A stretch of 57,421 nucleotides of DNA from a virus (Duplodnaviria > Caudoviricetes): positions 1-57,421 of the IMG/VR virus record IMGVR_UViG_3300031566_000036. One strand, given 5' to 3'. The position numbers and the translations under genes were made by a program. Numbering within the stretch: the first letter of the stretch is position 1; the number at the start of each line of letters is the position of its first letter. Under the pieces are notes generated by a model. That model saw only the letters and a program-made list of their open reading frames with translations. It searched no databases and was not told where the DNA came from. Shown piece after piece: positions 1 through 6,552 of this stretch.

Positions 1-153
1 GAAGCCTTCGGGCATGGCTTCTTTGAATGGGTACACTTCGGGATTTTTGTCGCCTACAAGGTCGAAGACTACTCGCCCGTGCTTCTTCGCCTTTTCGGGT
101 GTAGGCTTAACGGTTGGTTTTGCCGGCTCAGCGGCGGGTTTTACTCTTGCCAT
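1..153 (-). CDS. Early hypothetical protein, truncated by the window edge (MARVKPAAEPAKPTVKPTPEKAKKHGRVVFDLVGDKNPEVYPFKEAMPEGF...)
   Basis: Not in the ORF track. ATG at 153, AAGGAG RBS upstream, frame open to the edge. Shares MPEGF with the 572-955 protein. Confidence 0.8.
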   Translation of the reverse strand, partial: MARVKPAAEPAKPTVKPTPEKAKKHGRVVFDLVGDKNPEVYPFKEAMPEGF

Positions 154-184
154 AAATTTTGCTCCTTATTCAAAAATTTCGTTG

Positions 185-247
185 TTGGCCGTCTCATCAG
201 CAACGGTCGCCAATCCGTTGGACGCGGACTCCGTTCCGCGTTTCGAT
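185..247 (-). ncRNA. Type II hammerhead ribozyme HH1
   Basis: Minus strand reads AUC GAAA CGCGGA-ACGGAG-UCCGCG UC/ CAACGG-AUUGGCGA-CCGUUG CUGAUGA GAC GGCCAA. Predicted cleavage 221/220. Stem II is only 2 bp; UUGGC/GCCAA pseudoknot. Confidence 0.88.
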
Positions 248-248
248 T

Positions 249-422
249 TTAAAAGATTTCAATCATTCGATTCAGTTCGATGAGCGCCCTTGCATAGCAC
301 TTGTCGCCCTCATCACCAAAGGTGTTTACAAAAATCATCAAGCATTCATCATGCTCTTCAGTGTCACTGCCTTCTTTTTGCAAAGCTACGCTCTGCTTGA
401 AGATGTCATCGTCCGTAAGCAT
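249..422 (-). CDS. Early hypothetical protein (57 aa, MLTDDDIFKQ...)
   Basis: Start moved to the ATG at 422, which follows an AGGAGA RBS. The longer ORF runs through HH2. Confidence 0.75.
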   Translation of the reverse strand: MLTDDDIFKQSVALQKEGSDTEEHDECLMIFVNTFGDEGDKCYARALIELNRMIEIF

Positions 423-445
423 TTTATTTCTCCTATAAAAATGTT

Positions 446-517
446 TGACTTGTCTCATCAGGCAGTGGAAGTCACTCACTACGACGCGGTACAGTCCGTT
501 GCACCGCGTTTCGACAA
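446..517 (-). ncRNA. Type II hammerhead ribozyme HH2
   Basis: UUGUC GAAA CGCGGUGCA-ACGGAC-UGUACCGCG UC/ GUAGUG-AGUGACUUC-CACUGC CUGAUGA GACAA GUCA. Predicted cleavage 483/482. Confidence 0.92.
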
Positions 518-571
518 TCATCCATGATTTAATATAGACCAACCAGCTTCTTGCTGGTGGTAGCCCAACAG

Positions 572-955
572 CTATTCAGCCGCGGCTGCAGCGATAAGAG
601 CCTCAACGTCAATCCCTTGAGCGATGAGCTGCGCTTTGAGTTCGTTCATCTTGCTGTTCAAGCGTACAATTTGTTTCTTCTTGCGACGGTCAGCAGCTGA
701 ACCCATCGTTCGGCACTCTTCGGCCTGTGCTCTGAAGCCAGCCATCTTGTACGCCATTTCCTCGGCGCGGTGGTCATAGTAGAGCGCCTCAGTTGTGAAG
801 TTTCTTTTCTTCAAAGGTTTGTAGTCTTTGAAGTTGAATCCTTCGGGCATGACGACGTTATACGCTTCTTTGGCAATCTTGAAGCCTTCGCGTTTCTTGT
901 TGACCTTTACTGTTTTGACTTCGACTGTGATTGCTTTTTTGTTTGACTTTGCCAT
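572..955 (-). CDS. Early basic hypothetical protein with C-terminal coiled coil
   Basis: 127-aa ORF, AGGAGA RBS, Lys/Arg rich. Confidence 0.85.
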   Translation of the reverse strand: MAKSNKKAITVEVKTVKVNKKREGFKIAKEAYNVVMPEGFNFKDYKPLKKRNFTTEALYYDHRAEEMAYKMAGFRAQAEECRTMGSAADRRKKKQIVRLNSKMNELKAQLIAQGIDVEALIAAAAAE

Positions 956-994
956 TGTACTATCTCCTATGTTTGAAGTTTTGAAACTTTTCTG

Positions 995-1051
995 AGTCTC
1001 ATCAGTGTCACCTTATAGTGACAGACGCGGAACGGATTCCGCGTTTCGACT
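995..1051 (-). ncRNA. Type II hammerhead ribozyme HH3
   Basis: AGUC GAAA CGCGGAA-UCCG-UUCCGCG UC/ UGUCAC-UAUAAG-GUGACA CUGAUGA GACU. Predicted cleavage 1024/1023. Confidence 0.93.
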
Positions 1052-1056
1052 TTAAT

Positions 1057-1302
1057 CTATTCTTGACAATACTTTGTACCGTCTTCGTCGATGCATCCAC
1101 AATTATCGCATGTGATTGGTTTGATTAAAGCGGTGCGAATCTTTTTCATCGCTTTACTCCAACTCTCTTCAGCTTTTTGCAATTGCAATTCGATGTCGCC
1201 AATCATTACTGCTTCTGTGTTAGGATTGTCAGTAACAAAATTCGTCTTGCGTAAAAGTTCGAAAAGATATTCAACCTGTTCTTTTGTAAGTTCTACGTTC
1301 AT
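1057..1302 (-). CDS. Early hypothetical protein with C-terminal Cys cluster (CDNCGC..YC)
   Basis: 81-aa ORF, AGGAGA RBS. Confidence 0.8.
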   Translation of the reverse strand: MNVELTKEQVEYLFELLRKTNFVTDNPNTEAVMIGDIELQLQKAEESWSKAMKKIRTALIKPITCDNCGCIDEDGTKYCQE

Positions 1303-1333
1303 TTTAATATCTCCTATAAAAATGTTTTGGCTT

Positions 1334-1397
1334 GTCTCATCAGCACGAGCTCTTACTCGTGGACGCCCGACATGAGGTAATCATCGGGCGTTTCGAC
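1334..1397 (-). ncRNA. Type II hammerhead ribozyme HH4
   Basis: GUC GAAA CGCCCGA-(UGAUUACCUCAUG)-UCGGGCG UC/ CACGAG-UAAGAG-CUCGUG CUGAUGA GAC. Predicted cleavage 1362/1361. Confidence 0.92.
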
Positions 1398-1438
1398 TTG
1401 CATGCCGTCCGTGACATTACTACAATCCTTGGAGATTA

Positions 1439-1765
1439 TTATGAATCCAACTTTTCGAGCTTTGCTTGAACGGCGGCGAGTTGAGCTTCCAACGTCTCGC
1501 GACGTTTCGTAATGCGCTCAGCTTTCTTTGCTTCGCGTTCGTCCTTAGTCGCTTCGAGGATGATTGCCTTCTCGACGTTATTCGCAATCGTTCCAATGCG
1601 AGCAGCAACCCGTACGATTTGTGGAGCAAACCGCACCATGATGTCGTCCGATACTCCAACGATGCAAATTGATTTTGCAATGTCTTTCAGGTTGGCGACT
1701 GTGCCGGGAGTTGTGTCAATGTTTGTGTTGGTTCGGACCGTGGTTTTCTTTGTTGACTTTGCCAT
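1439..1765 (-). CDS. Early hypothetical protein with C-terminal coiled coil
   Basis: 108-aa ORF, AGGAGA RBS. 5' UTR nearly identical to that of 572-955; both proteins start MAKS. Confidence 0.85.
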   Translation of the reverse strand: MAKSTKKTTVRTNTNIDTTPGTVANLKDIAKSICIVGVSDDIMVRFAPQIVRVAARIGTIANNVEKAIILEATKDEREAKKAERITKRRETLEAQLAAVQAKLEKLDS

Positions 1766-1804
1766 TTTACTATCTCCTATGTTTGGGGTTTTGAAACTTT
1801 TCTG

Positions 1805-1861
1805 AGTCTCATCAGCACTGCCTTATAACAGTGGACGCGACTTCCGTGTCGCGTTTCGACT
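1805..1861 (-). ncRNA. Type II hammerhead ribozyme HH5
   Basis: AGUC GAAA CGCGAC-ACGGAA-GUCGCG UC/ CACUG-UUAUAAGG-CAGUG CUGAUGA GACU. Predicted cleavage 1834/1833. Confidence 0.93.
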
Positions 1862-1862
1862 T

Positions 1863-2057
1863 TCATTTTGCAACTTGACCAATGCCACATTCATTTTTGA
1901 ATTTGAGCGCTTGGTGTTTTTTAGCGAAGCCAAACAACAATCGTCCGTCGTTGTCAGCATGGCCAAAAAATTCACCATGATGTTTTTTGCAAGCTTGATG
2001 AAATGTGTGAAGCAATACGTTTTCGTTTCTGCCTGCTTGAATAAATACCTTTGCCAT
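1863..2057 (-). CDS. Early hypothetical protein (64 aa, MAKVFIQAG...)
   Basis: Start moved to the ATG at 2057, behind an AGGAGA RBS. Confidence 0.8.
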   Translation of the reverse strand: MAKVFIQAGRNENVLLHTFHQACKKHHGEFFGHADNDGRLLFGFAKKHQALKFKNECGIGQVAK

Positions 2058-2137
2058 TTTAATATCTCCTATAAAAATAGTTAGGTTAAAAAACATGAGT
2101 CCGAGCAATGATATTCGATTGCTCGGTGTCGCGTCTT

Positions 2138-2386
2138 TTAATCTTCAAGAATTTCGATGTTTTCACAAAGGTCAAGATCTTGCCAAAACATTTGAATCAT
2201 TTGACAAAGTTCTTCAAACGTTCCAGTGTATTTGACTACGGGCCAACATCCACCCGGTCCAACTTCTTGGACAACTTCAACATCAACATCGTTGTCTTGA
2301 CAATATTGTTGTAGGTAACAATTTCTGTCGAGATTCATCGTGTCAAGTTCAACACAGCTAATTTTGTCGTTTCTTTTTGTTGCCAT
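2138..2386 (-). CDS. Early acidic hypothetical protein
   Basis: 82-aa ORF, AGGAGA RBS, first gene of the early operon. Confidence 0.82.
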   Translation of the reverse strand: MATKRNDKISCVELDTMNLDRNCYLQQYCQDNDVDVEVVQEVGPGGCWPVVKYTGTFEELCQMIQMFWQDLDLCENIEILED

Positions 2387-2409
2387 AATTCAATCTCCTA
2401 TAAAAATGT

Positions 2410-2478
2410 TTGGCTTGTCTCATCAGCACGGTTTGCCAATTTCCGTGGAACCGCGAGATGGCTCTCGCGGGTTTCGAC
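2410..2478 (-). ncRNA. Type II hammerhead ribozyme HH6 (variant cleavage site)
   Basis: GUC GAAA C CCGCGAGA-GCCA-UCUCGCGG UUC/ CACGG-AAAUUGGCAAA-CCGUG CUGAUGA GAC AAGCCAA. UUC triplet with a C-U mismatch in stem III. Predicted cleavage 2448/2447. Confidence 0.85.
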
Positions 2479-2538
2479 TTTAGGAGATTAGTGACTTATT
2501 CTTTTACTGCTTGCTCACAAGCAACAGCAGTGACAGTA

Positions 2539-2587
2539 GTCCAACTCAGAGTCCCAGGATATTCTATCCGTCCAACTTAGAGTCCCA
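2539..2587. repeat. Two 18-bp direct repeats GTCCAACTYAGAGTCCCA
   Basis: Copies at 2539-2556 and 2570-2587, one mismatch, separated by a small GGATA..TATCC hairpin. Confidence 0.85.
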
Positions 2588-2776
2588 TGTCCGCTTCGCA
2601 GCAGTCACTCAAAAAAATTTTTGATACCATCGAATTTTACCGTAGCGTCAGAATTTCTTGCGTGCTTCTCAGCCGGGTCGCATCTCGGCGTCCGCCCATT
2701 CGACATTTGCTACAGTCTCATGCCCTTGTTTTTGGCACCGTATTATTAACTTATCAATCAATCAATTTCAATTACA

Positions 2777-2804
2777 ATTATACCATATAGTATAAAAATG
2801 TAAA
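2777..2804 (-). promoter_or_regulatory. Sigma70-type promoter for the early operon
   Basis: TTTACA-16 bp-TATAAT with extended TG and an upstream A/T tract. Same design as the promoter at 16701-16729. Confidence 0.75.
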
Positions 2805-3034
2805 CTAAAAAATAAAATTTTTCTTAAAATTTATCATATTTTTTCTGCATCCGTAAAGTGTTATAAACAATGGCTTTATATCTCACGTTTAAGGCCTCTA
2901 CAAGCCTCGTGGAGGCACTTTACTATTCTCGTGTATAATCAATCGAGCAATTGAATAAAGTTTAATGGCGCTTGATTTAACCGGCATTTAACCATATATA
3001 ATAGAGTATCGACAATAACGGCGATGGGATTAAC

Positions 3035-4981
3035 TTAAATAAATTTTATTTCAGCTGCTTTATCTTTCGACGCTATTTTCCAATTTTTATCAGATGTGCC
3101 ACATGACGTTCGCATAGGCACACGAAATTTGAAAGTAACGTTTTCAATCTCATCTTTAATTTTCTTTAGGGTAGTGACATCTTTTGATAGCCCTATAGGA
3201 TTGTACTGAGCGGTCTCATCATGTACTGAAGCGAAAAAGTCAATTCCTAAATCGCGAATGAATTTATTATACCGTGGAGCGAGTGCAACGGTTCGTTCTT
3301 TCATAACGTCAGCGGCAGTTGACTGAACGATAGTATTAAAAGCACGATAGGACGCTTGCTCAGGTAAATGACGATGCCGACCGTAAGCATTAAAAACATA
3401 ACCTCGACTCAAAAGATTATTTGATGCGGCAGTTGTTGCAATTCTTAAACCCGGTAACGTGCTATGATACTCTTGATAAACATTCTCTCCACGCTTAAAA
3501 CAAAGCATCTCAAAAACTCGCAAGCGTTGGTCTTCTCGAACCTTGCCGGCTGCAACCAATTCTTCGACTTTATTCAAAAGACCACCTACAAGCTCCATGT
3601 TTAACGCGAGCATTGAAACTACTTTCTTCTTGCCACCACCGAATGCAATTGCAAAGTTTACGTTTTTCGCTGGGCCTCGTGGAATGCCACACATCTCTGC
3701 AACCCAATTATGAAAGTCAGTATCTGGGTTTTCATTATAAGCAACAATTGCGTTTTTATCTTTGATATAATGTACGATAATTCTGAATTCGATTTGTGAA
3801 AAGTCCCAACTAATAATTTCTTGACCTTCGGGCGGGTGTACGAGTTCTTTTGCTTCTTCAGATAACTGTTGAGAGTTTGGTCGACGACAAGACATTCTAC
3901 CAGTGCGCACAATTTGATTATAATCTGGGTGCATAACACCGTTAACTTCGTGCTCAAGGTACGTCGTAAGAAATAAACTGTTAAGCGTGTGCAATTTTCG
4001 GTATGCTTGGACTTTGTTCACTATTGTAGTCAATAATTCTGATTCTTGTACAAGTGGATGCGCAAGATACGAAATCAATGCGGCTTTATCGAATGATGGT
4101 TCAAGTTTTTCAGTACGACCTAAAATAGGTAAACCGTACTTATTACATAGTACTTCATAGCAGTCTGCATTCGTATGTGGTCGAATCGCATAACCTGTGA
4201 GTTTATGCAGCTCTTCTTCTAATTGTGACAACCGATAAAGCGTGACTAATTGTTTTTGCTGAAGTTCAAGTCGGTCAACGTGAAGGCCAATAACTTCCAT
4301 ATCAAACAAAACTGGAGTTAATAAAATCTCTGTTTCCCATACCGTTTCTGTTTGCTCATGCCGTCGTCTTAAGATATAGCGATGCAACTTCCTATTTGTC
4401 AAAACATCTTGACAGGCGTACTCTCCAATAATGTCTCCGGGTACGTCGCCGTAGTTCTTACTCTTGCACCCAGCAAGGTACGCCTTTAGTCTATCTTCAC
4501 TTTTTGAAGTATCTTCTTCAAGCCATTCACGCGACAGGGTATTTAACTCATAACCAAAGCGGTCTGAATTAATAATTTTTGAAAGTGTATTAGTATCGAC
4601 TAATCGACAATTAAAAATGATCCCGTCTTGCTTTGCAAAGTGTGCATCGAATTTAACATTGTGGTTCACCCACTCGTAGCAAGAGTTTATTTGTTCTTCT
4701 GCCCAGTCCAAAACAGGGTCAAGCGGAAGATTCCACTTTTCATGTGTACACCTTATCGGCACGTACCACGCTCCAGGTACATCATCTGCAGTAGCGGCAA
4801 TACCGCAAATCCTATGTCCATGATACGGTTTAAACGCTGGTTCATTTGAGTCAAAAGACGTCGTCTCCGTATCAAGGTACAGCGCTTTCGCGTTTTTAAG
4901 ATTCGGCAGTTCACTTAAGTTTTGAATTAATCGACCGCCATTAGGAAATTGTAACACGATTCGGTCTCCAAACATTTCCAT
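3035..4981 (-). CDS. polA: Family A DNA polymerase with 3'-5' exonuclease domain
   Basis: Exonuclease motifs DTET, HNVKFD, YACQD. Polymerase motifs TGRMS, DFSQIEFR (A), AKNVNFAIAFG (B), VHDE (C). Confidence 0.95.
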   Translation of the reverse strand: MEMFGDRIVLQFPNGGRLIQNLSELPNLKNAKALYLDTETTSFDSNEPAFKPYHGHRICGIAATADDVPGAWYVPIRCTHEKWNLPLDPVLDWAEEQINSCYEWVNHNVKFDAHFAKQDGIIFNCRLVDTNTLSKIINSDRFGYELNTLSREWLEEDTSKSEDRLKAYLAGCKSKNYGDVPGDIIGEYACQDVLTNRKLHRYILRRRHEQTETVWETEILLTPVLFDMEVIGLHVDRLELQQKQLVTLYRLSQLEEELHKLTGYAIRPHTNADCYEVLCNKYGLPILGRTEKLEPSFDKAALISYLAHPLVQESELLTTIVNKVQAYRKLHTLNSLFLTTYLEHEVNGVMHPDYNQIVRTGRMSCRRPNSQQLSEEAKELVHPPEGQEIISWDFSQIEFRIIVHYIKDKNAIVAYNENPDTDFHNWVAEMCGIPRGPAKNVNFAIAFGGGKKKVVSMLALNMELVGGLLNKVEELVAAGKVREDQRLRVFEMLCFKRGENVYQEYHSTLPGLRIATTAASNNLLSRGYVFNAYGRHRHLPEQASYRAFNTIVQSTAADVMKERTVALAPRYNKFIRDLGIDFFASVHDETAQYNPIGLSKDVTTLKKIKDEIENVTFKFRVPMRTSCGTSDKNWKIASKDKAAEIKFI

Positions 4982-5468
4982 TGCATGTGACTATTGCATG
5001 ACAACTATTACACAATAGCACTCCATTCTTTGGATCGTTATTATAATGGTTTCCGTCAAGATGGTGCGCTGAAAGCTTCCTACCATTATCTTCTTTCATT
5101 TTACCACATATTTGACAAACTTTATCTCGAACTCGAATAGTCTCACAAAACCTCTTTGATTCTACACAAAATCCGGTACTATAATTTGAATTATTTTTGC
5201 CAGTTCGATCATGTGTTTTATCAAATTTTCTTATTCTTCTTTTAGACACTTCTCGTTGTAAACACCCGCAACTTTTTGTATGCCCAATTCGTAGATAGTT
5301 TCCCTGTATAATCTTTTTTGTATCACAATCACATTGACATAAATAATAATCACAGCCTTTTAATTTAGATGTTTCTTTGTCATAATGCAAAACTAAAAGA
5401 CGCCCAAATTTCTTGCTAATCATTTTTAGTTGCTCTTGACCTGCTGTTCCTATAAATCCTCTTGGCAT
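4941..5468 (-). CDS. HNH homing endonuclease
   Basis: N-terminal FGRL..CQCDC..SCGC domain; CQIC..HHLDGN..N..LLCNSCH. Confidence 0.88.
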   Translation of the reverse strand: MPRGFIGTAGQEQLKMISKKFGRLLVLHYDKETSKLKGCDYYLCQCDCDTKKIIQGNYLRIGHTKSCGCLQREVSKRRIRKFDKTHDRTGKNNSNYSTGFCVESKRFCETIRVRDKVCQICGKMKEDNGRKLSAHHLDGNHYNNDPKNGVLLCNSCHAIVTCNGNVWRPNRVTIS

Positions 5469-5482
5469 AATAGTTCCTTAGT

Positions 5483-5950
5483 TTAGCGTAGTGACTTCCA
5501 ATGTTTTAATAGTACTAACTGCGTTTCTATTCTTAAATTTAACTCGTCGATAATATCAAGTTTGCATTCTTTTAATAAGTCTACACCATCTAAACTTCTG
5601 TACTCTTCAGACCAAATAACACCTACGATACTTGAGCAATTTAATATCGCCCTTGCACAAGCTTCACAAGGCGACTTTGTTGTATATAATAAACTCGGCT
5701 TTGCAAAGTCGTTGTTGAACTTTATAACAGCGTTAAGTTCAGCATGAATGCATCCGCAGTTACCTGGCACTCCACTGCAAGAATCATTTGGTAAATGTTT
5801 CGATGGCCCGTTATATCCAATCGAGTATATTGCGGAGCAATCCGTAGGAAAAATAATTGCACCTACTTGTAAACGCTTACATACCGACAATGACTCTAAT
5901 AACTTTCCCATTTGAATAAACGTTTTTAGTTTTTTCAAATACCGTTTCAT
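5483..5950 (-). CDS. dCMP deaminase
   Basis: VGA, GYNG, HAELNA and PCEAC zinc motifs. Confidence 0.9.
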   Translation of the reverse strand: MKRYLKKLKTFIQMGKLLESLSVCKRLQVGAIIFPTDCSAIYSIGYNGPSKHLPNDSCSGVPGNCGCIHAELNAVIKFNNDFAKPSLLYTTKSPCEACARAILNCSSIVGVIWSEEYRSLDGVDLLKECKLDIIDELNLRIETQLVLLKHWKSLR

Positions 5951-5952
5951 AG

Positions 5953-6552
5953 CTATTGTTCCTTAAATAGGCGATTCTTCCCAGAACCATCATCGGTTAT
6001 TTCCCAGCATATAAACTTTTCTTGTTTCCAACCTACTGGGACATTGTAATACGAAAATTCAAAAATCACATTTCTTAACTCAGTTCTTCGGCAGTGCCAT
6101 ACACAAAGGTCATGTTTATTTCCGCAGTTTATTTTTTGGCCTACCGCATAAACAATCGTTTCGTCAATCTTACCTTCGTTTGTCACTGTTCGTACAGTGC
6201 CGGGTCCGTTTGCAATTTCCATAACAGCCGTGCCTTGCTCTTGAATTAAAATGCAACCTCTGAACCCGCAATCCTTTGGGTTAATTTTATCAGCAACGAT
6301 TAATTGTAGGCCAGTGTCGAACCACTTGGACGCTTTTTTAAGTAGTATGAACTTGGGTATCGTTGGAAAGTGCGGCGCTATTAAGTTTGGTCCCAGTTCA
6401 TCACGATAAAATGTTCGAACGCTGAATGAATTTCGTTGACCCACAAAGTCACTGATTTTTAATTCCTTCATCGAGGTTATAAGCACACTATTCTCTGCGT
6501 TCAGACCAAACTTTCGCGGCAGTTGAACTCGCTGAAATTTATTTCTTCGCAT
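5953..6552 (-). CDS. Hypothetical protein in the nucleotide-modification cluster
   Basis: About 200-aa ORF coupled to its neighbours; no recognised motif. Confidence 0.65.
   Translation of the reverse strand: MRRNKFQRVQLPRKFGLNAENSVLITSMKELKISDFVGQRNSFSVRTFYRDELGPNLIAPHFPTIPKFILLKKASKWFDTGLQLIVADKINPKDCGFRGCILIQEQGTAVMEIANGPGTVRTVTNEGKIDETIVYAVGQKINCGNKHDLCVWHCRRTELRNVIFEFSYYNVPVGWKQEKFICWEITDDGSGKNRLFKEQ

Follow-up and report, generated by a model that had tools for sequence, protein, structure and literature searches.

Six predicted type II hammerhead ribozymes at the gene junctions of a small-gene block in a phage contig

How the RNA of a block of small phage genes is divided into messenger RNAs (mRNAs), and whether it may be divided by cutting itself, is the question raised by one end of the IMG/VR virus record IMGVR_UViG_3300031566_000036 (Duplodnaviria; Caudoviricetes). 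The window analysed here is the complete, linear record (57,421 nucleotides (nt); CheckV completeness, 87%), and its sequence was found in soil metagenome runs. Within the first 2.5 kb, the minus strand carries six elements, HH1–HH6, of the layout (G/A)UC-GAAAC-hairpin-UC-hairpin-CUGAUGA-GAC, which the original prediction took to be type II hammerhead ribozymes on the coding strand. This identification was borne out by the layout, by an independent covariance model and by covariation among the copies. On the sequence evidence set out below, we consider it probable that the six are functional type II hammerheads that lie in the spacers between small genes and process one transcript.

The order of parts in each element is that of the type II permutation: the 5' strand of stem II comes first and is followed by G12, A13 and A14, by a loop-closed stem III that opens with the A15.1-U16.1 pair, by the cleavage site C17, by a loop-closed stem I, and finally by C3–A9 (CUGAUGA) and the 3' strand of stem II. 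The catalytic core is intact. C3–A9 and G12–A14 are invariant in all six copies, which also share G10.1-C11.1, the A15.1-U16.1 pair, C17 and a standard first pair of stem I. The C-G and U-A pairs of stem II are likewise present in six of six, and the third pair is G-C in five and A.C in HH6. The copies are listed here with window coordinates, predicted cleavage positions, scores under the covariance model R1, and structural class; both the model and the classes are described below.

HH1, 2417–2478, minus strand: pseudoknot class; 38.9 bits, E = 4e-10; cleavage after C2448, 5'-hydroxyl (5'-OH) at 2447
HH2, 1806–1860, minus strand: compact class; 37.1 bits; cleavage after C1834, 5'-OH at 1833
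HH3, 1334–1397, minus strand: apparent chimera; 46.6 bits; cleavage after C1362, 5'-OH at 1361
HH4, 996–1050, minus strand: compact class; 39.2 bits; cleavage after C1024, 5'-OH at 1023
HH5, 452–515, minus strand: pseudoknot class; 39.6 bits; cleavage after C483, 5'-OH at 482
HH6, 191–247, minus strand: pseudoknot class; 36.3 bits; cleavage after C221, 5'-OH at 220

The string CTGATGAGAC occurs exactly six times in the 57,421 bases, always on the minus strand and between 191 and 2426; when up to one mismatch was allowed, it was found at nine sites (three with one mismatch) versus 2.93 expected. A script scan for the core together with stems I, II and III returned six elements in the window and none in the reversed window, and 163 in 1.2 Mb of other loci versus none in the reversed sequence. 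The covariance model R1 was trained on 17 equal-length hammerheads from other viral contigs, none of them from the window. Run with filters off over the 57,421 bases, it gave exactly six matches (36.3–46.6 bits; E = 3e-9 to 1.4e-12), and its next-best match scored 10.9 bits (E = 0.49); because the training sequences had been picked with a pattern from the window core, the core contribution to these scores is partly by construction, from which the helix contribution is exempt. In an alignment of the six copies, which was fitted to the model, standard pairs fill 83 of the 85 cells and double changes occur in 9 of 15 pairs; none of 500 shuffles was as high, and slid partners were 14–48% paired. 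The original statement that the stems pair in every copy therefore holds apart from two mismatches, a C.U at the second stem III pair of HH1 and the A.C at the outer stem II pair of HH6. Minimum-energy folds contain stem III in all six copies and stem I in HH2–HH5. In HH1 and HH6, the minimum-energy nested fold adopts the pseudoknot helix in place of stem I.

Two structural classes are mixed in this array. Most type II hammerheads form a pseudoknot between loop I and the nucleotides right after stem II, and their stem II often consists of just two pairs (Perreault et al. 2011, PMC3088659); a stem II of 3 bp is thus ordinary in this family. Loop I/tail complementarity of the pseudoknot type, 5–6 nt long, is present in HH1, HH5 and HH6 and in none of HH2, HH3 and HH4. 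UUGGC in loop I pairs with GCCAA in the tail of HH1 (5 nt), and HH6 has the same pairing; HH5 has UGACUU with AAGUCA (6 nt), a compensatory change relative to HH1. HH2 combines a 4-bp stem II with an 18-nt stem I hairpin and no pseudoknot. In HH3, a stem I of the compact class is fused to a tail of the pseudoknot class, and both the fourth stem II pair and the pseudoknot are absent. Because the same stem I bears a compact-class UCAG tail in a strain relative (L130, 6–65) and in DNA-run variants, HH3 looks recombinant and probably is; it may also be slow in cleavage. As for the outer A.C pair of HH6, all four orthologues (L127, L131, L132 and L133) have G-C at this position and carry GTC, so that the A is derived.

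We sampled 150 hammerheads from 120 other viral stretches, among the matches listed in an IMG/VR pattern scan. Among the 94 sampled copies with a longer stem I hairpin, loop I and tail are complementary over at least 5 nt in 58, and swapping the tails reduced this count from 58 of 150 to 3 of 150. In the other 56 copies, the stem I hairpin does not exceed 18 nt; 53 of them have a fourth stem II pair, and a pseudoknot of at least 5 nt was found in none. There is thus a compact subclass with a 4-bp stem II, a stem I hairpin of 17–18 nt and no pseudoknot, which accounts for 53 of the 150 sampled copies. Its loop is conserved as U-A-A-N-G (U in 45, A in 34 and G in 36 of 47 copies), as is an A two positions ahead of stem II (47 of 50). 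This conservation of loop I and of the A points to a tertiary contact different from the pseudoknot.

The six elements occupy six of the seven junctions of a block of seven small genes, which follows a promoter-like sequence and a leader. The features of this region, with open reading frame abbreviated to ORF and amino acids to aa, are as follows.

2777–2804, minus strand: predicted sigma-70-like promoter, TTTACA, 16-nt spacer and TG-extended TATAAT; start near 2770
2479–2770, minus strand: untranslated leader of ~290 nt, no ORF with a Shine-Dalgarno site
2138–2386, minus strand: g1, 82 aa; 116 aa long in the relative L129, where its C-terminal part is Cys-rich
2101–2126, minus strand: 9-bp hairpin and U run in the g1/g2 junction (2137–2058); terminator-like, not canonical
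1863–2057, minus strand: g2, 64 aa
1439–1765, minus strand: g3, 108 aa; leader and MAKS N-terminus in common with g5
1057–1302, minus strand: g4, 81 aa
572–955, minus strand: g5, 127 aa; paralogue of g7
249–422, minus strand: g6, 57 aa
1–153, minus strand: g7, N-terminal 51 aa, running off the record; paralogue of g5

HH1 follows the untranslated leader and HH2 lies directly after g2, and HH3–HH6 begin 1–56 nt past the preceding stop codon (HH4 begins 6 nt past that of g4). Each ribozyme is followed after 29–40 nt by a start codon with a GGAG Shine-Dalgarno site. The description of the array as almost one ribozyme per gene is accurate, the sole exception being the g1/g2 junction, which has the hairpin and U run and gave no R1 match with filters off. 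The promoter is the best promoter-like site in 1–5200, with 11 of 12 consensus matches and a TG before the second hexamer, and the same scan found no comparable sigma-70-like promoter in the array interior. The leader folds no better than shuffles (2772–2479, z = −1.17) and has no Rfam match (2479–2770). Within it, at 2530–2590 on the minus strand, a 17-nt motif, GGGACUCU-R-AGUUGGAC, is present twice, 14 nt apart; in IMG/VR, this motif was found in one unrelated contig (L136) without R1 match or blastn similarity, which looks like a chance match.

No function or family could be assigned to g1–g7 by comparison with Pfam and PHROGs, and a protein search with g5 in viral contigs found no relatives. 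Two short relatives of this phage (L127 and L133) prolong g7 by ~175–190 nt, with 70% identity to g5, without reaching its end; a region containing MPEGF is common to g5 and g7. The pairs HH2+g3 and HH4+g5 have near-identical leaders and the MAKS N-terminus in both. The shared leader and N-terminus, together with the paralogy of g5 and g7, indicate that ribozyme, leader and gene start were duplicated as a unit.

All plausible genes of the record, including all real-looking ORFs of at least 110 aa, lie on the minus strand. In minus-strand order, a first block encodes terminase, portal, a MuF-like protein, tape measure and tail proteins, and the replication block that comes next encodes an SNF2 helicase, a primase-helicase, a C5 methylase, a dCMP deaminase, an HNH endonuclease and a DNA polymerase. 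The HNH endonuclease ORF (4941–5468, minus strand) overlaps the start of the DNA polymerase ORF (3035–4981, minus strand) by 41 nt. After the DNA polymerase come the sigma-70-like promoter, the leader and the seven small genes with their hammerheads. The identity of the record as a phage rests on terminase, portal, tape measure and DNA polymerase. The genome is read one way, and the array is located 3' of the replication module, at the contig end. Because of this position, the label 'early operon' in the original prediction is a guess; what the sequence shows is a block of small accessory genes that has a host-type promoter to itself. Blastn of 1–6000 against GenBank phages returned a single irrelevant 96-nt match, a host search via the portal in genome contigs returned uninformative matches of 32–37% identity in a Chloroflexi and a Halanaerobiaceae metagenome-assembled genome, and no tRNA genes were found in the phage record. 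A 30-mer from the window end had no match in metagenome contigs, nor did the leader pattern in viral contigs. One DNA contig, from run X1, reaches 550 nt beyond the window edge.

From this anatomy, the following course of events can be proposed. The promoter at 2804–2777 (minus strand) would drive one long RNA, in which stems III and I would fold locally as each ribozyme emerges, and the 3–4-bp stem II would then close, assisted by the loop I/tail pseudoknot in HH1, HH5 and HH6. The RNA would cut itself after C17 at each ribozyme during transcription, and the products would part at once because just 3–4 stem II pairs hold them. Cleavage at HH1 would release the leader as a non-coding 5' fragment, and the remaining products would be roughly gene-length mRNAs, with g1 and g2 still joined. 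The 5' end of each would be a 5'-OH with the stem I hairpin immediately behind it (and, in HH1, HH5 and HH6, the pseudoknot as well), followed by a standard leader of 59–68 nt with a strong Shine-Dalgarno site; at the 3' end, stem III would form a hairpin that carries a 2',3'-cyclic phosphate. The genes would thereby be uncoupled, and every mRNA would have hairpins at its ends and an identical context for the start of translation. The 5'-OH positions of the original prediction (2447, 1833, 1361, 1023, 482 and 220), its unit sizes (614, 472, 338, 541 and 262 nt) and the leader lengths all proved arithmetically right.

A processing model with a single promoter fits this anatomy and can be called well founded as a prediction. 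Transcription as one unit, cleavage in vivo and effects on stability or translation are what we infer from it, co-transcription because there is one strong promoter, none inside the array and a single gene orientation. For the proposal that one promoter-driven transcript is cut into gene-length units, the anatomical part (single promoter, minus-strand genes and Shine-Dalgarno sites) was thus confirmed, and cleavage stands as a prediction. Contigs of one metatranscriptome run (X9) cover 25–209 and 666–816, and the former stops 11 nt before the HH6 cleavage site; contigs cannot show RNA ends, and from this one study neither transcription nor an end can be inferred. Stabilisation of the products by their 5'-OH would depend on the host. 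Ends with a 5'-OH escape 5'-monophosphate-dependent RNase E, but the glmS product, which has such an end, is degraded by RNase J1 in Bacillota.

Arrays of this kind are not confined to the window. The IMG/VR pattern scan matched at least 120 stretches, and among the matches listed, R1 identified 165 copies across the first 100 loci and another 28 across the following 22. The following arrays are also among the matches listed.

L049, 2152–5075: nine hammerheads
L048, 8159–11317: eight hammerheads
L011, 6231–9595: seven hammerheads
L050, 3830–6396: six hammerheads
L023 and L046: four hammerheads each
L114: four hammerheads by the R1 model and one more by the script scan

In these arrays, which are on unrelated contigs, the ribozyme typically starts between a 1-nt overlap with the stop codon and 5 nt past it (some gaps are longer), and typically ends 12–36 nt before a start codon equipped with a Shine-Dalgarno site, as in the window layout. 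At least five of the nine hammerheads of L049 belong to the compact subclass. At the gathering score, Rfam reports none of these nine and four of the eight in L048.

The original prediction had proposed a search for the same arrays in related phage contigs, and here the outcome was divided. A search of metagenome contigs with the leader pattern returned seven short strain relatives (L127–L133) with 19 hammerheads, in which 99.6% of cells are paired and double changes occur in 10 of 15 pairs, again in an alignment fitted to the model. In contrast, no hammerhead was detected by R1 or Rfam in the DNA-polymerase relatives L125 and L126 (43–44% identity), and the array is therefore not shared at this distance. 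From the promoter into g1, L129 matches the window at 99.6% identity, after which it diverges: its g1 is longer, and its g1/g2 junction (721–928) carries a hammerhead. Because so close a relative has a ribozyme there, the one at this junction of our phage was lost or replaced. The L129 hammerhead (840–898) has the core CUGAGGA, in which the variable position 7 is a G. An additional U precedes its stem II and is offset by a linker to the 6-bp pseudoknot that is shorter by 1 nt; the Rfam score of this copy is 37.6 bits. L129 also has an additional 117-aa gene, and its ribozymes stand at five consecutive junctions.

The relatives further reveal exchange between ribozyme halves. One stem III hairpin accompanies three unrelated stem I hairpins without any change in its own sequence, a second stem III likewise accompanies three, and the stem I of HH6 occurs with four different stem III hairpins. 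Exact strings were used for this comparison, and a similarity matrix was rejected as too crude because shared GC-rich stem ends inflate identity. We read these patterns as the likely result of recombination and conversion among repeated junctions. A variant of HH2 in DNA run X7 has four substitutions and two indels in stem III with pairing kept. Separately, contigs from soil DNA runs join distant points of the array (220/1024, 1028/2049, 1054/2050 and others) with sides of 20–30 nt; these joints may reflect either misassembly at repeats or a genuine loss of cassettes.

Several points weigh against the reading of the six elements as functional hammerheads that process one transcript. Beyond the window-derived choice of the R1 training set and the fitting of both alignments to the model, Rfam at gathering score reported none of the six copies in the whole window. 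In E-value mode, HH3 reached 35.0 bits (E = 1.2e-4) with RF02276 (Hammerhead_II), whose gathering score is 37, and HH1, HH2 and HH4–HH6 were not reported as Hammerhead_II even at E up to 10. A Hammerhead_3 alignment over HH4 (20.6 bits) had many non-pairs and was rejected as being in the wrong register. No pseudoknot is predicted in HH2–HH4, the fourth stem II pair is missing from HH3, and the A.C mismatch of HH6 sits in a 3-bp stem II. In type II hammerheads, published mutational data show a drop in rate of more than 100-fold at 0.5 mM Mg2+ once the pseudoknot is lost (PMC3088659). In HH2 (1801–1815) and HH4 (991–1005), both on the minus strand, the CUGA of the core can pair with the UCAG of the tail, and this hairpin, which appears in their minimum-energy folds, would sequester the core. 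Finally, the hairpin and U run at 2126–2101 could end many transcripts after g1.

The negative Rfam result needs to be read with the composition of the family in mind. The consensus 3' tail of the model, AGCCAAA, is also present after HH1 and HH3, and HH3 alone comes close to the threshold because its tail matches this consensus. The RF02276 gathering score is passed by 16 copies in other arrays, including three R1 training sequences (L046), and by 3 of the 19 copies of the strain relatives (38.3, 37.8 and 37.6 bits). The class behind the R1 training set is therefore the curated family RF02276. Thus, a search with Rfam hammerhead models, which the original prediction had proposed as a check, failed for the window copies at gathering score and succeeded for some copies in strain relatives.

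Four other explanations have to be weighed against processing by functional hammerheads. Could the elements be an intergenic repeat family, such as repetitive extragenic palindrome (REP)-like sequences, terminators or protein-binding hairpins, with a chance likeness to the core? The absence of Rfam matches at gathering score would agree with this, as would the stem III hairpins, which score as terminator-like on the opposite strand. However, the core positions are invariant in six of six while the stems covary, 1.2 Mb of reversed-sequence controls gave no match, the independent model R1 finds the copies at E-values of 1e-9 to 1e-12, and members of the lineage pass the Rfam gathering score; this reading is close to refuted, and we give it very little credence. 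It is similarly improbable that cleavage and ligation occur in succession and yield circular or spliced RNAs instead of linear mRNAs. Hammerheads do catalyse the reverse reaction, and the possibility was raised by Perreault et al. (PMC3088659), but the text of that paper also states that such products were sought and none were detected, and here each unit has an ordinary Shine-Dalgarno site and ORF. A less remote alternative, although one that we still regard as doubtful, is that the elements are real ribozymes of which only some are efficient, so that HH1, HH5 and perhaps HH6 would be fast, HH2, HH3, HH4 and possibly HH6 slow or conditional, and the result would be a graded mixture of mono- and polycistronic RNAs. 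The copies lacking the pseudoknot (three of six), the missing fourth pair of HH3, the HH6 mismatch, the competing hairpin possible in HH2 and HH4, and the published rate losses on pseudoknot removal (PMC3088659) all point this way. Against it stands the compact class, which is common in other viral contigs, where it makes up 53 of 150 sampled copies, and is conserved there. This abundance and the conserved loop suggest a working design and not decay, and the five sampled copies of the nine-hammerhead array in L049 are all of the compact class.

The remaining explanation concerns DNA: the junctions between ribozyme and leader may also serve as recombination joints for the swap, loss or duplication of single-gene cassettes. 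Since all junctions share one core and one stem II (GUC/GAC), a working ribozyme would be rebuilt whichever two of them cross over. Such a role would account for the identical stem III hairpins with three unrelated stem I hairpins, and the reverse, in the seven relatives, for the extra cassette and hammerhead at the g1/g2 junction of L129, for the stem I/tail chimera of HH3, and for the leader and N-terminus shared by HH2+g3 and HH4+g5 and the g5/g7 paralogy; in DNA-run contigs, even the HH6 and HH4 cleavage sites, 220 and 1024, are joined. On the other hand, breakpoints also lie inside genes, e.g. at 2153 (g1) and at 1744 and 1570 (g3), the DNA-run joints with their short sides (20–30 nt) are possible assembly artefacts at repeats, and any repeated sequence of 60–100 nt recombines, which does not imply selection. 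We hold a role as recombination joints to be rather unlikely. If it did exist, a crossover anywhere within a ribozyme, whose stems I and III are self-contained hairpins, would fuse one junction's 5' half with the 3' half of a second, and the product would be a working ribozyme with a standard leader. In this way, small genes could be acquired, dropped and rearranged one at a time by phages of the lineage, every gene bringing along a processing site and a translation start. This reading would also give a reason for the type II permutation, as it puts the two stem II strands at the outer edges of the junction. That the array is a ribozyme-bounded gene-cassette system, like an integron without integrase, is a tentative suggestion. 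Processing of one transcript by six hammerheads remains the explanation that we prefer.

This 2.8-kb unit is a small natural system in which the role of bacterial and phage hammerheads could be studied. It offers one promoter, six ribozymes of two classes, the HH3 chimera, the HH6 mismatch with intact orthologues, and a junction (g1/g2) that has a ribozyme in a close relative and a plain hairpin in this phage. Comparing mRNA ends, half-lives and protein output across these variants could show how self-cleavage benefits the phage. In addition, annotation at the Rfam threshold misses such arrays (none of six here and none of nine in L049), and ribozyme-punctuated operons are therefore probably under-counted in viral metagenomes.

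How does this array compare with known systems? It shares with RF02276 the core, the permutation with an open stem II of 2–4 bp and, in HH1, HH5 and HH6, a predicted loop I/tail pseudoknot, and differs from it in that the six window copies score below gathering and that HH2 and HH4 have the compact form without pseudoknot. The novelty suggested in the original prediction, which knew of no described gene-by-gene array, was overstated, given the IMG/VR arrays of six to nine and the work of Perreault et al. (2011, PMC3088659), who reported that multiple hammerheads often flank single genes or short gene groups in prophages and proposed processing into single-gene mRNAs. In the same paper, three tandem arrangements cleaved during in vitro transcription, and the triple of Agrobacterium tumefaciens did so in Escherichia coli as well. 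The prophage clusters of Clostridium scindens, Azorhizobium caulinodans and A. tumefaciens have several one-strand hammerheads flanking single genes of phage origin, and these examples cleave in vitro (PMC3088659). By comparison, there are six in 2.3 kb here, on a free phage contig and not in an annotated prophage, with two classes in one array and a uniform leader; for the prophage clusters, the text speaks of a triple arrangement (PMC3088659). Desulfovibrio vulgaris has three type II hammerheads near phage-like genes, two of them ~250 nt apart, and their in vivo cleavage was demonstrated by cyPhyRNA-seq, which captured the 5'-OH and 2',3'-cyclic-phosphate ends (PMC8782182); these are single sites or a pair, whereas the array of the window lies at gene junctions. 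A 2019 review repeats the idea of polycistronic processing and calls the role 'largely elusive' (PMC6765202). In the running text of papers, a full-text literature search found no long gene-by-gene hammerhead arrays beyond those of Perreault et al. (2011); a larger described array may exist elsewhere.

The principle is thus already in print, and what is new is the scale, the mixture of two classes, the natural variants and the exchange of cassettes. A protein-dependent counterpart is the early mRNA of phage T7, a polycistronic transcript that RNase III cuts at intergenic hairpins into gene-length mRNAs with structured ends. T7 needs a host protein, which cuts double-stranded RNA and leaves 5'-phosphate and 3'-OH ends, whereas the RNA of the window is predicted to cut itself and to leave 5'-OH and 2',3'-cyclic-phosphate ends; the analogy is therefore one of function only. 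In synthetic ribozyme insulators such as RiboJ, a self-cleaving ribozyme placed upstream of a ribosome-binding site removes upstream context and leaves a hairpin at the new 5' end. Such an insulator is one engineered part that goes back to a satellite-RNA ribozyme, whereas the window contains a natural array.

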